A DNA stretch of 64,000 bases, taken from assembly GCF_030013595.1 (NCBI RefSeq), contig NZ_CP122768.1. One strand, 5' to 3'. The stretch is from Escherichia coli (GTDB lineage Bacteria > Pseudomonadota > Gammaproteobacteria > Enterobacterales > Enterobacteriaceae). A program made the position numbers. Shown piece by piece: positions 57,001 to 63,000 of the stretch; position 1 is the stretch's first letter; each line of letters begins with the position of its first letter.

Positions 57001-60000
57001 CGGTGTAATCATCCGCTTTAGTGCTGTTGGGATCTTTGCCGAGATAATTCAGCACGGTAGCAAAAACTTCTTCTGGCGCATCGAGGAAAGAGACACCGCA
57101 GCTTTTCAGTTTTTCCAGATTTTCAGGCTTGAGGATCAAGTCCCAGCTATCGACGGGCGCGTTTTCGCCCAGCACCGCTTTGACTTTATCGACGTTATAG
57201 CCAATCCCGGTTGTCGCCCACATATAGGGCATAGCAAATTTATTATCCGGGTCGTGTTTGGCAACCAACTTCAGCAGTTCCGGGTCGAGATTCTTCCACT
57301 CCGGCAATTTACTTTTATCCAGCGGCTGGAAAACTCCCGCAGTCAACTGGCGTTCAAGAAAGCTTGCTGACGGCACCACCAGGTCAAAGCCGGTGCTACT
57401 CGCCATTAATTTGCCTTCCAGTACTTCGTTAGAGTCGAAAACATCGTAGACGACTTTAATACCGGTTTCTTTTTCAAAATTGGCCACCGTGTCCGGGGCG
57501 ATATAATCAGACCAGTTATAAATGTGGAGTGTTTTTTGTTCAGCCGCGAGCGTGCCGACAGAGACGGCCATCAGAGCACCCGCAACCAGACCCGATAGCC
57601 ATTTTTTATTTAAGGCGGTCATATCTCTTTCCTTCTGAAAGTTCGTTAACAAACGAACAAAAGTTGTCACACTGAAAGATATGCAATAAACGTGCATATT
57701 TTTTATCGGCGCGGTGTAAGAAAAGAGAACTCTCTCCCGGCCAGCACTGCTCGCTATATAAAAGCATCGCAAGAATAACTTTAGCCAGGGTTTGAGACTA
57801 TAGCTCGGATTAAAAAACGGTATTTAACAAATTTTTATGCGTATTTGCTCTATGTGATAAAGCCAAATCGGCACAAGAGAAGTGAAATAATCTTTAAGAA
57901 AAGGTTAAAAACAGCAGATAATTTTGCAGCACGCAGTCACTGCGGCAGCGACTGCGTACTCGAAAGGAGTTATCAGTGGAGGAAATAGTTTTCGGTAACG
58001 TTGTTTTGCCCTTCATCGTCAGTCGGTAACAGCAGTTGATGGGCATTAGCTTCAAGAATGACCATCGAAATCTGCTCTTCGCTCTGACGCACGAACCATG
58101 CAAACTGCTCATAGGTTACGCCCTGCATAACGGATAAAGACTGGCAAACCACCAGCTTTGGCAGATTATCATCCTGCATATCAAGAAATGCTTTCACGGT
58201 CAGCGAACTGGCATTGATGGCTGATAAATCCGCCGCCAGCGGCAATACGGCTGAAGGTCGGACTTCCGCCATGGCAGAAAACAGGATCGTGTTATCGATC
58301 AGATCGATTTTGGCATCAAAGACACCGTCGAAATTCTGCATATGGGGCAGATGCAGAGCCTGACAGTTATCACATTCAAAAAAACTCATCCCCAGGTCAT
58401 CGAGCCATTGACGCAACGTATCCAGACCAGGAACGACCAGCGATGTCATAATTTTGTACAACCTCTTTCGATAAAAAGACCGGCACAGCTTACGCAAAAA
58501 GCGCAGGCAAAACCATGATCAGTAATGTGATTGCGACTAACCACCCGTTTTCAGGCAATATTCTGTCGTAGCGTGGCGTTCGATCCAGCGGATCATTTTA
58601 CCCGCGATGTCGATACCGGTGGTTTTTTCTATTCCTTCCAGCCCCGGCGACGCATTCACTTCCATCACCAACGGCCCGCGATTAGCACGCAAAATATCTA
58701 CACCAGCAACGTCCAGCGCCATCGTTCGCGCGGCTTTTATCGCGATTTCACGCTCCTGTGGTGTGATACTGGCGACGCTTGCCGCGCCGCCACGATGCAA
58801 ATTGGAACGAAAATCGCCCTCTTTCGCCCGCCGTTCAATCGCCGCGACCACTTCATCGCCAACAACCAGACAGCGGATATCGCACCCTTGCGCCTCTTTG
58901 ATATATTCCTGCACCAGAATATGCGCGTTCAGACCGCGGAAAGCGTCAATCACGCTTTCGGCCGCCTGACGCGTCTCCGCCAGCACGACGCCAATTCCCT
59001 GCGTGCCTTCAACCAGCTTGACCACCAGCGGCGCACCACCGACCATGTCGATTAAATCGCTGGTATCATCCGGCGAATGCGCAATGCCCGTGACAGGCAG
59101 GTCGATGCCCTGACGCGCCAGCAGTTGCATGGAACGCAATTTGTCACGCGCCCGGGCAATGGCGACCGACTCATTGAGCGGATAGCTCCCCAGCATCTCG
59201 AACTGGCGCAGTGCCGCCGTCCCATAAAAGGTAATGGCGGTGCCAATACGCGGGATCACTGCGTCAAAATGGGGTAACTTGCGGCCTTTGTAGTGAATAG
59301 AAGACGCCGCAGGATTTATGTTCATGTAGCAAGAAAGCGGATCAAGAATTTCAACCAGGTGACCGCGCTGTATAGCGGCTTCACGCAGCCGCTTACACGA
59401 ATAGAGCGTTCCATCCCGGGACAATATGGCAATTTTCACCCTGCACCTCTCTGTCAGACCTGGTCAAAAGCCCGCGTATCATACATCGGCGTGGCGGTTT
59501 TAGCGCGTTGCCCAACCCTGTTTGTGCAAATAATCCAGAATAAATGGGCGGCTTTCTTTAATGATTGTTCGGCGGATATGATCGCTCCAGGTATCCCGGC
59601 GATTATTGCTGCCACGGGTGAGGTAATATTCCGCCAGTTGCTCGTCATACTGCGCCAGTTCGTCTTTATCCAGCGGTTGATAGCTGTTTTCATGCACCAA
59701 AATGGAGGCCGGTAAACGCGGCTTAAGATCTGGATTATCCGCAGGCCAGCCAAGGCACAGCCCAAACAGCGGCAGAACATGCTGCGGTAATTTCAGCAGC
59801 TCCGTCACCGCTTCAATATTATTGCGCAGGCCGCCGATATATACCCCGCCCAATCCCAGCGATTCCGCTGAGGTTAACGCATTCTGCGCCATCATTGCCG
59901 TATCAACGACACCGAGCACTGAGAGATCCCCTCATAATTTCCCCAAAACGTAACCATGTGTGAATAGATTTTGAGTAAGCAGGGTTGCAGCCACGAGTGA

Positions 60001-63000
60001 GTCTTCCCTTGTTATTGTGTAGCCAGAATGCCGCAAAACTTCCATGCCTAAGCGAACTGTTGAGAGTACGTTTCGATTTCTGACTGTGTTAGCCTGGAAG
60101 TGCTTGTCCCAACCTTGTTTCTGAGCATGAACGCCCGCAAGCCAACATGTTAGTTGAAGCATCAGGGCGATTAGCAGCATGATATCAAAACGCTCTGAGC
60201 TGCTCGTTCGGCTATGGCGTAGGCCTAGTCCGTAGGCAGGACTTTTCAAGTCTCGGAAGGTTTCTTCAATCTGCATTCGCTTCGAATAGATATTAACAAG
60301 TTGTTTGGGTGTTCGAATTTCAACAGGTAAGTTAGTTGCTAGAATCCATGGCTCCTTTGCCGACGCTGAGTAGATTTTAGGTGACGGGTGGTGACAATGA
60401 GTCCGTGTCGAGCGCTGATTTTTTCGGCCTTTAGAGCGAGATTTATACAATAGAATTTGGCATGAGATTGGATTGCTTTTAGTCAGCCTCTTATAGCCTA
60501 AAGTCTTTGAGTGACTAGATGACATATCATGTAAGTTGCTGATAGGTTTCCAGTTTTCCGCTCCTAGGTCTGCATATTGTACTTTTCCTCTTACTCGACT
60601 TAACCAGTACCAACCCAGCTTCTCAACGGATTTATACCATGGCACTTTAAAGCCAGCATCACTGACAATGAGCGGTGTGGTGTTACTCGGTAGAATGCTC
60701 GCAAGGTCGGCTAGAAATTGGTCATGAGCTTTCTTTGAACATTGCTCTGAAAGCGGGAACGCTTTCTCATAAAGAGTAACAGAACGACCGTGTAGTGCGA
60801 CTGAAGCTCGCAATACCATAAGCCGTTTTTGCTCACGGATATCAGACCAGTCAACAAGTACAATGGGCATCGTATTGCCCGAACAGATAAAGCTAGCATG
60901 CCAACGGTATACAGCGAGTCGCTCTTTGTGGAGGTGACGATTACCTAACAATCGGTCGATTCGTTTGATGTTATGTTTTGTTCTCGCTTTGGTTGGCAGG
61001 TTACGGCCAAGTTCGGTAAGAGTGAGAGTTTTACAGTCAAGTAAGGCGTGGCAAGCCAACGTTAAGCTGTTGAGTCGTTTTAAGTGTAATTCGGGGCAGA
61101 ATTGGTAAAGAGAGTCGTGTAAAATATCGAGTTCGCACATTTTGTTGTCTGATTATTGATTTTTGGCGAAACCATTTGATCATATGACAAGATGTGTATC
61201 TACCTTAACTTAATGATTTTGATAAAAATCATTAGGGGATTCATCAGCACCGAGCAACAGTTGTTCCGCCAGGCCAAGTTGTGCATCCGGACAGATCTGT
61301 AAATGGCGGTTAAAGTCGGCACAGAACACCCAGAACTCCGCCGCTTGCGCTACGTGTTTTTGCCCGCCGGTCAGCGTCACCAGTTCATCACGTAACGCTT
61401 TGTCGGTAATGCGAATAATGCTACTGCACTGCAAAAAACTGGAACTGGACGTCGCACGGGCGCTGTTAATAATCGCCTCACGCTGCGCTTCGGAAATGGG
61501 TTCATCAGTGAAATGGCGAATGGAGCGATGGCCACAAATAAGTTCAATGGTTGGCGTCATTATCTTTTTCTCTTTCTGAACGTGAATATTGCGGTGGACG
61601 GTTCATCAGCTGTGGGGCAAGACGTTTTGCCACCTGAAGAATAACCACCACCGCAGCGGGAAGCATGAGCAAAACACCGAGAAAAATCATCAGAATCTGC
61701 ACTTCTGGCCGAGAAAATGGCTCAGGCAGCGACAGGGAGCCGCTTACCGACAGCAGCGCCACCGCCAGCAACATCATTCCGATAAATTCCAGTATCAACA
61801 CGCTTTTAGGCAATTTACCGATCGCGCGCATACGCTTCCCTCTGCAAAGTGAGCCTTCAGTCTAAAACTTTTCACTGTATTGTGTTTAACAGTTATAGCT
61901 TTTAGCAATTAATGCAACAGGTTAAACCTACTTTCAGCGAATAAATTTTAGCGTGATCATTACAGGCATAAATCTATGAGGAGAGAAATAATGCAAACCG
62001 TTATTTTTGGTCGTCCGGGTTGCCCTTACTGTGTGCGTGCAAAAGATCTGGCTGAGAAATTGAGCAATGAACGCGATGATTTTCAGTATCAGTATGTTGA
62101 TATTCGTGCGGAAGGGATCACTAAAGAAGATCTACAACAAAAGGCAGGTAAACCCGTAGAAACCGTGCCGCAGATTTTTGTCGATCAGCAACATATCGGC
62201 GGCTATACCGATTTTGCTGCATGGGTGAAAGAGAATCTGGACGCCTGATCGTCTGACAAGCCCTCGCGTTGAGGGCTTTATTGATTTTTTCTGTGCTGTG
62301 GTTTAAACAAACTACTGATAAATAAGAAACACAGTGCCCCCAGCGCACACCAGAACACCGCACTCAATAACCATGCCAGCTCTTGCCAGAATGAGCGCGT
62401 CGGTGAAAAAAACAGCCGCATAATAAGCATTGAACAGGGTGCCGCCAGCATTGCGCCAAACAGAGGTTTCAGGACTTCTCTACGCTGTGAAAAGAAGCTG
62501 GCAACTGCTCCAGGAAGAATGAAAAACAGCAAGCCGATTTCAGGATGCCCGGCAGCCCGAAAAGCGCCTTTCATGTGCGTCGCCAGAAAAAGGCACACCA
62601 CAATGAAGAGGACAAAACAGCAGATTGCCCCCGCCCAACGTTGTTTATGTTTCACTCGTTCCTCCTGACACTGCGTCTATCGAACACATTTTTCGCCAGT
62701 GTGGCGTTCAGTAAGATAAAGCCGCTTCGCATTCCATGCTAATATAGGCCAACGCAATTCATATAGCCGTTGATACCTAATGTGATTACACTAGTAAAAT
62801 ATATTGTTACTTTACTATCGTTTAGGTGCGCTGAATGAATCTGCGCCCTGAATTCTGGTAAAAAACATTATCGTAAATTACCATTTCTTTCAACAGCTTA
62901 CTAGTAAACAAGAAGTTAACCTCCGTGAATATAAACGTCGCCGAATTGTTAAATGGGAATTACATTCTGTTATTATTTGTGGTCCTCGCGCTTGGGCTAT

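Follow-up and report, generated by a model that had tools for sequence, protein, structure and literature searches.

A window of 64,000 nucleotides (nt) of Escherichia coli DNA (assembly GCF_030013595.1, contig NZ_CP122768.1; "the window" denotes this whole stretch) contains one copy of the insertion sequence (IS) IS10, which splits nfsA, the gene for the oxygen-insensitive NADPH nitroreductase A. This arrangement is very probably explained by a single transposition of an IS10 of the IS10-Left type into the chromosomal nfsA gene, yielding a null allele that would cause a first-step, low-level reduction of susceptibility to nitrofurans.

A terminal-repeat search located the ends of the element at 59919 (inside end, CTGAGAGATCCCCTCATAATTT, plus strand) and at 61247 (outside end, CTGATGAATCCCCTAATGATTT, minus strand). 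These patterns had just two matches across the window, with none expected by chance, and they delimit a complete element of 1,329 base pairs (bp) with imperfect terminal inverted repeats. The transposase open reading frame (ORF) scored 402 bits against the NCBIfam IS4-family transposase model NF033591, well above the cut-off of 152. The features of the element and its target are:

59919-61247, minus strand: complete IS10, with the transposase in the direction of nfsA
59919-59941, plus strand: inside-end terminal inverted repeat, containing a dam site (GATC, 59925-59928)
61225-61247, minus strand: outside-end terminal inverted repeat, 0 mismatches to the outside-end pattern
59932-61140, minus strand: transposase coding sequence, 402 amino acids (aa), intact (ORF and NF033591)
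61133-61202, plus strand: antisense RNA RNA-OUT (Rfam RF00240, full length, 97.3 bits, gathering score 41)
61178-61181: dam site GATC in the -10 region of pIN (IS nt 67-70)
59910-59918: first copy of the target-site duplication, CACCGAGCA, i.e. nfsA nt 305-313 (TGCTCGGTG on the sense strand)
61248-61256: second copy of the target-site duplication, CACCGAGCA, abutting the outside end
61248-61560, minus strand: 5′ fragment of nfsA (nt 1-313, codons 1-104; positions 1-105 of 240 of NCBIfam NF008033)
59500-59918, minus strand: 3′ fragment of nfsA (nt 305-723 including the duplicated 9 bp, residues ~103-240 and stop; positions 102-240 of 240 of NF008033)

RNA-OUT overlaps the start of the transposase gene and runs towards the outside end; together with its promoter pOUT it is directed into the 5′ fragment of nfsA, to which it is antisense, and away from rimK. 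The role of the dam site in the -10 region of pIN has been described (PMC5006887), and the second canonical dam site, at IS nt 1320-1323, lies at the inside end. Thus, length and ends, the 9-bp duplication, the transposase, RNA-OUT together with the dam sites, and near-identity to the reference all identify the element as IS10 of the IS4 family.

Both ends of IS10 abut a perfect 9-bp direct repeat, CACCGAGCA. On its own, such a repeat is weak evidence, and a third copy that is unrelated to the insertion is found at 54492; the comparison with an empty site is decisive. Relatives of the lineage were traced via exact-protein look-ups, and the rejoined NfsA as a query led to a locus in GCA_012621055.1 (L007) whose sequence matches the window with 100% identity for 4,419 bp towards rimK and for 2,753 bp towards ybjC (~7.2 kb). 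The overlap of these matches amounts to exactly 9 bp, the target is present as a single copy, and the predicted 60-nt empty site exists in L007. The occupied site was also recovered independently. The chimeric ORF of 116 aa (NfsA residues 1-104 and an IS-encoded tail) was found in the assemblies GCA_021649405.1 and GCA_008326365.1, the contigs of which terminate inside the outside end of IS10 and have flanks that are 100% identical to the window. For GCA_021649405.1 the inside-end junction begins a separate contig, so that both junctions were recovered in that assembly, and the ORF of the 3′ fragment of nfsA occurs on a total of about 20 contigs. Contig breaks at both junctions are the expected pattern, because short-read assemblies break at multicopy IS. 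The exact empty site and the independently assembled junctions show that the insertion is a genuine transposition event and not an assembly artefact. The exact 41-nt inside-end junction had no match in a collection of species-representative genomes, but the source genome is not a GTDB representative, so that this result is uninformative on the reality of the insertion.

The interrupted gene is identified as nfsA by its product and its surroundings. Removal of IS10 and one copy of the repeat yields an ORF of 723 bp and 240 aa, which aligns end to end with the crystal structure of NfsA of E. coli K-12 (PDB 1F5V; 234 of 240 residues identical, six substitutions, E = 8e-159). The gene order ybjC-nfsA-rimK-ybjN is colinear with that of K-12, and grxA is found past ybjC on the opposite strand. 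The gene is interrupted after nt 313, i.e. after codon 104, and nt 305-313 are duplicated. The 5′ ORF encodes residues 1-104, ending with ...AEQLLLG, followed by 12 IS-encoded codons (ADESPNDFYQNH*; 116 aa in total), and its stop codon (61210-61212) lies inside IS10. The sequence-only reading that preceded this analysis had described a complete IS10 of 1,329 bp that includes its two ends, a perfect target duplication of 9 bp, and a split of nfsA after ...QLLLG. The first of these is correct to the base, the repeat is present on both sides of the element and once in the empty site, and residue 104 is indeed the point of the split. A second, intact copy of nfsA, which that reading had named as a possible objection, was searched for within the window, and none was found.

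Helix E of NfsA (residues 100-120) is the major dimer interface, residues 165-210 form the excursion domain, and Lys167, Tyr200, Arg203, and Arg208 bind the phosphate of the ligand flavin mononucleotide (FMN) (PMC8286842). The insertion point lies inside helix E, and the excursion domain, Lys167, Tyr200, Arg203, Arg208, and also Arg225 are lost downstream of it. Because the dimer-interface helix is broken and the excursion domain and the FMN-phosphate residues are lost, nfsA::IS10 can safely be regarded as a null allele. The split after codon 104 thereby provides the loss-of-function nfsA allele of a stepwise nitrofuran-resistance genotype. At the inside-end junction, the last base of the IS and TG of the target form an in-frame GTG codon (59917-59919, minus strand), 8 nt downstream of GAGGGG (upstream stretch to ~59933), from which a fragment comprising NfsA residues 103-240 could be translated. 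An active C-terminal fragment produced from this codon was considered and rejected, as it would be devoid of the N-terminal 102 residues.

In the proposed mechanism, one IS10 of the IS10-Left variant would have transposed into chromosomal nfsA and duplicated the 9 bp at nt 305-313. NfsA would be cut after residue 104 in helix E, and its N-terminal third would be separated from the rest of the core domain and from the excursion domain. Cells without NfsA activate nitrofurans (nitrofurantoin, nitrofurazone, furazolidone) less efficiently. The loss of NfsA would lead to a first-step, low-level reduction of susceptibility, and full resistance would additionally require the loss of nfsB or a change in ribE.

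Disruption of nfsA and nfsB through IS has been described as a leading cause of nitrofurantoin resistance, with nfsA as the usual first step (PMC8767348), which supports the earlier claim that IS inactivation of nfsA is a recognised first step. In the scoring scheme of the same study, an interrupted nfsA alone has a value of r = 1, i.e. "susceptible, increased exposure", and the prediction of clinical resistance needs an r of at least 2, i.e. a further lesion, in nfsB or ribE, or the presence of oqxAB. All nine of nine confirmed resistant isolates, with minimal inhibitory concentrations of at least 128 mg/L, had lesions in nfsA as well as in nfsB (PMC8767348). For nfsA::IS10, first-step reduced susceptibility is thus the predicted phenotype, and not clinical resistance; the "resistance genotype" of the sequence-only reading stands as an nfsA null allele and a first step, and goes too far as a statement about clinical resistance. 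The allele resembles those of the resistant E. coli of PMC8767348 in having an IS in a gene for an oxygen-insensitive nitroreductase, flanked by a 9-bp direct repeat. In those isolates the interrupting elements were IS1R for nfsA and an IS10R-like element for nfsB, and the earlier studies cited there reported IS1, IS186, and Tn10 as inactivating elements. In contrast, the window has an element of the IS10-Left type at nt 313 of nfsA.

The type of the element was assigned by comparison with the two arms of Tn10 on plasmid R100 (NR1). Between the window element and the arm proximal to gltS (jemA), 0 of 1,329 positions differ; the two share the ends, RNA-OUT, both dam sites, and the 9-bp duplication, and also the same 402-aa transposase (WP_001352368.1 in RefSeq records). 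According to the gene order in PMC5571418, the jemA-proximal arm is IS10-Left. For the tetD-proximal IS10-Right, the reference IS10 and functional arm of Tn10, length and organisation are the same, but 15 nt differ (98.9% identity), at IS nt 24, 25, 27, 47, 83, 107, 410, 425, 903, 1249, 1268, 1271, 1272, 1281, and 1300. The transposases differ at four residues (I266V, S381L, T389A, and V398A, window residue first). The four differences nearest the outside end are located at window positions 61201, 61221, 61223, and 61224 (IS nt 47, 27, 25, and 24). An "IS10L-like" element has been described that has four amino-acid changes in comparison to IS10R and four extra substitutions in the region of the left inverted repeat (PMC8767348), which matches the differences at IS nt 24, 25, 27, and 47 and at residues 266, 381, 389, and 398. 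By its sequence, the window element is the IS10-Left variant of Tn10; this assignment is based on the gene order in PMC5571418, the description in PMC8767348, and the IS10-Right RNA-IN sequence. The Prokaryotic Genome Annotation Pipeline (PGAP) labels the element "IS4-like element ISVsa5 family". It differs from IS10-Left of Tn10 in being a solo chromosomal element and not the arm of a transposon.

Two of the differences between the Left and Right types, at window positions 61142 and 61166 (IS nt 107 and 83), fall into the 35-nt region in which RNA-IN and RNA-OUT overlap and pair. One of them is RNA-IN position +3, which pairs with the loop of RNA-OUT. Inhibition between Left- and Right-type copies may therefore be weaker than inhibition within each type.

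The unrelated strains APEC O2-211 and MB53 have elements identical to the window IS10 at two further sites in nfsA, each with its own target duplication. Among the complete E. coli genomes, outside ends with at least 99% identity to the Left type were found in 749 records, and those of the Right type in 1,973 records. The Left-type sequence clearly moves in nature, either autonomously or by a transposase acting in trans.

For a survey of further insertions, both junctions were searched against the 5,426 complete E. coli genomes of RefSeq, the loci were fetched, and the ends were located. At least 11 genomes contain nfsA::IS10, at four target sites in nfsA:

nfsA nt 305-313 (TGCTCGGTG): the window; O111:H11 strains 88.0502 and 88-19539 (IS10-Right type, same orientation)
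nfsA nt 305-313 (TGCTCGGTG): SEV1/SEV4 (IS10-Right type, opposite orientation)
nfsA nt 305-313 (TGCTCGGTG): Z1323CEC0002/4 (opposite orientation, IS1 inside IS10, not assigned to the Left or the Right type)
nfsA nt 276-284 (TGCTCAGCT, perfect consensus): APEC O2-211, TUM1880
nfsA nt 157-165: MB53
nfsA nt 72-80: E92/E94

The O111:H11, SEV, and Z1323CEC genomes thus share the exact 9-bp target with the window. Their flanks differ from the window by ~1.3-2%, and the IS10 copies of O111:H11 and SEV1 differ from the window element at 16 nt. The divergence of the flanks, together with the different IS variant or orientation, shows that at least three independent insertions have occurred at this one site. 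In all listed complete genomes, RefSeq marks nfsA as a split pseudogene. The mechanism and the element are already known, and public genomes already include split nfsA pseudogenes with the same target site. Within the target TGCTCGGTG, one half-site (GCT) is perfect, and four of six core positions match the preferred IS10 target NGCTNAGCN; the target fits the relaxed IS10 consensus NPuCNNNGPyN (PMC4574204). At nt 276-284, the nfsA allele of the window has no site within one mismatch of the consensus core.

A sister isolate (SRR12827713, Logan) has no IS10 in nfsA and carries C280T, which converts codon 94 into a stop codon (Q94*). Across its sequenced flanks this base is the sole difference from the window, and Q94* is a second, independent null allele in the clone of the window. 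The recurrent IS10 target and the nonsense allele in the same lineage fit selection for the loss of nfsA. The carriers of nfsA::IS10 with a stated source all came from food animals, i.e. from chicken (USA, Cuba, South Korea), from cattle (USA, China), or from a pig carcass (Thailand), in a sample that is small and includes clonal pairs. Nitrofurans have been used in poultry, cattle, and pigs. The food-animal pattern of the sources is suggestive of veterinary nitrofuran selection.

Insertions in at least three lineages, in both orientations and with both variants, identical Left copies elsewhere, Q94*, and the livestock sources together lead to a joint interpretation, which we put forward tentatively: nt 305-313 of nfsA may be a natural hot spot of IS10, IS10-Left may be an active mutagen in wild E. 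coli, and the loss of nfsA may have been selected repeatedly, probably by veterinary nitrofurans. We consider this combination possible.

Several points weigh against selection by nitrofurans and, more generally, against the proposed course of events. According to the published scheme, the loss of nfsA alone falls short of clinical resistance (PMC8767348), and nfsB, ribE, and oqxAB are located outside the window. IS10-Left is described as much weaker than IS10-Right or as inactive, i.e. it reportedly transposes poorly (PMC8767348; PMC11148124), and the insertion may have been made by its own transposase or by IS10-Right in trans. Lastly, a strong target preference of IS10 and weak purifying selection on nfsA could explain the recurrence instead of drug selection.

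The insertion could be real but neutral, if IS10 entered a preferred target in a gene that the cell can spare and the resulting allele persisted by drift or hitch-hiking without any nitrofuran selection. The fit of TGCTCGGTG to NPuCNNNGPyN with its perfect GCT half-site is compatible with this explanation, as is the reuse of the site, which is what a hot spot would show. The non-essential nfsA is under the weakest negative selection among nfsA, nfsB, and ribE (PMC8767348), and IS10 is common, with matches in 1,902 of the 5,426 complete E. coli genomes (35%) and a nearly full-length copy in 1,173. However, neutrality is at odds with the independent nonsense allele Q94* in the same lineage and with nfsA::IS10 at four or more distinct sites in unrelated strains. 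Furthermore, every carrier with a stated source was from poultry, cattle, or pigs, in which nitrofurans have been used, again with the proviso that the sample is small. In view of these results, a purely neutral history appears unlikely, albeit by no means negligible.

The neighbouring genes were inspected with respect to polarity. RegulonDB-derived lists give ybjC-nfsA-rimK-ybjN as one operon that is activated by SoxS, and apart from nfsA its genes are intact:

61544-61831, minus strand: ybjC, first gene of the operon, intact (ORF, K-12 synteny)
58537-59439, minus strand: rimK, downstream of the insertion, intact ORF (K-12 synteny)
57973-58449, minus strand: ybjN, downstream of the insertion, intact ORF of 158 aa

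Because the four genes form one operon, a polar effect of IS10 on rimK-ybjN is plausible. RNA-OUT/pOUT reads away from rimK, so that classic activation by pOUT cannot drive rimK. A scan of 57.8-62.0 kb for promoter and terminator consensus sequences yielded fewer sites than, or no more than, shuffled sequence and is uninformative on polarity.

The operon structure also raises the question of whether the selected effect was regulatory, i.e. polarity or an outward promoter acting on rimK-ybjN, or a pOUT antisense transcript covering ybjC and the 5′ end of nfsA. Promoters at the two ends of IS10 read outward, and the element can activate adjacent genes (PMC4574204, PMC2744996), and RNA-OUT/pOUT points into the 5′ fragment of nfsA. 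Yet other strains have the IS inverted at this site, which would result in different regulatory outputs, and the same lineage contains a plain nonsense mutation. The loss of NfsA is therefore the common denominator of all alleles, rather than regulation, and a regulatory explanation is quite improbable.

Even less probable is a repeat copy that was misplaced into nfsA by the assembler. IS10 is a multicopy repeat in many genomes, with up to 45 places per genome, and assemblers can misplace repeats. Nevertheless, the perfect 9-bp duplication combined with the exact empty site in a relative of 100% identity, and the junctions seen independently at contig ends of other assemblies and runs, effectively exclude this artefact, which the sequence-only reading had named as its own refutation.

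That reading had also taken IS10 to imply that the strain carries or once carried Tn10-family elements. The IS10-Left identity makes an ultimate Tn10 ancestry plausible but is no proof of a present or past Tn10 in the strain, and the implication is weak in view of the presence of IS10 in 35% of the genomes and the absence of Tn10 cargo from the window. A blastn comparison of the Tn10 region of R100 with the window matched IS10 alone, and the composite structure of two inverted IS10 copies flanking tetR-tetA-tetC-tetD and jemA-C was not found in the window. Although nfsA has been reported as a site of Tn10 insertion (in work cited by PMC8767348) and the element is identical to the IS10-Left arm of Tn10, the chance that it is one arm of a Tn10-type composite transposon in nfsA is minimal, given that a lone 1,329-bp element, which has its own target duplication, is immediately bordered by nfsA sequence at either end and that tet genes, jem genes, and a second IS10 are all absent from the window. 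Apparent mentions of IS10 in PMC11845447 turned out to be IS100 and IS102 and are irrelevant.

Further observations concern the core region of the window and a genomic island. The core region (23300-64000) is 96.4-98.9% identical to K-12. Among the complete RefSeq E. coli genomes none is closer than ~98.6% over the 24 kb next to IS10, and draft assemblies with 100% identity exist. A complete genome of this lineage seems to be missing from the collection. Positions 1-23279 form a genomic island at the serW tRNA site, which includes:

ureC, running off the start of the window; ureB, 1600-1920; ureA, 1929-2231; a ureD-like ORF, 2241-3230 (urease cluster, all minus strand)
7272-8018: TraT-like gene
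7924-8742: IS3 transposase
9248-11581: IS66 tnpA/B/C
12338-14722: PrimPol-helicase
18787-19224: IS1 fragment
21724-22926: integrase

The serW gene is reduced to its last 19 nt (23261-23279), a second tRNA 3′ end with a terminator is found at ~23084-23140, and ARAGORN detected no intact tRNA in the window. An Rfam match to "5_ureB_sRNA" at 1179-1457 was rejected as a small RNA, as it represents the antisense strand of the gene for the urease alpha subunit.

The island also has a gene for a phosphoethanolamine-lipid A transferase (3890-5521, plus strand) that is related to MCR-9 and MCR-3. It scored below the cut-offs of the MCR-9 model (778 bits versus 1240) and of the EptA model (608 versus 660) and is a member of neither family. 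The adjoining gene (5614-5973, minus strand) is a diacylglycerol kinase gene according to RefSeq annotation. The cassette of the two genes was found with at least 99% identity in 573 records from 574 of the 5,426 complete E. coli genomes, and this frequency shows that it is a common accessory element. Seven of the seven top matches listed with an uninterrupted match are porcine isolates.

Two type I-F repeats of the clustered regularly interspaced short palindromic repeats (CRISPR) type (23321-23348 and 23381-23408, minus strand; Rfam CRISPR-DR4, 50 and 30 bits) are located in the stretch from clpA to the serW remnant, and cas genes are absent from the vicinity. The known residual CRISPR3/4 locus of E. 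coli has this position. Between ybjP and ybjQ, a segment of ~2.5 kb (44619-47165) is absent from K-12. It includes an ORF of 600 aa (44769-46571, minus strand) that matches the HalA model only weakly (23 bits, cut-off 250), and a pentapeptide repeat-containing protein is among the features annotated by RefSeq for this insert in other strains.

The conceptual gain from this insertion is small, as the knock-out of nfsA by an IS is a textbook route, and its added value is modest, consisting of the assignment to IS10-Left, the repeated use of one 9-bp target, and a second null allele that arose convergently in the clone. In practice, short-read pipelines that are limited to point mutations or that break contigs at IS will miss or mislabel the allele, and in related draft assemblies nfsA is in fact split over two contigs. 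For the strain itself, the allele would mark a position one mutation, in nfsB or ribE, away from clinical nitrofurantoin resistance.

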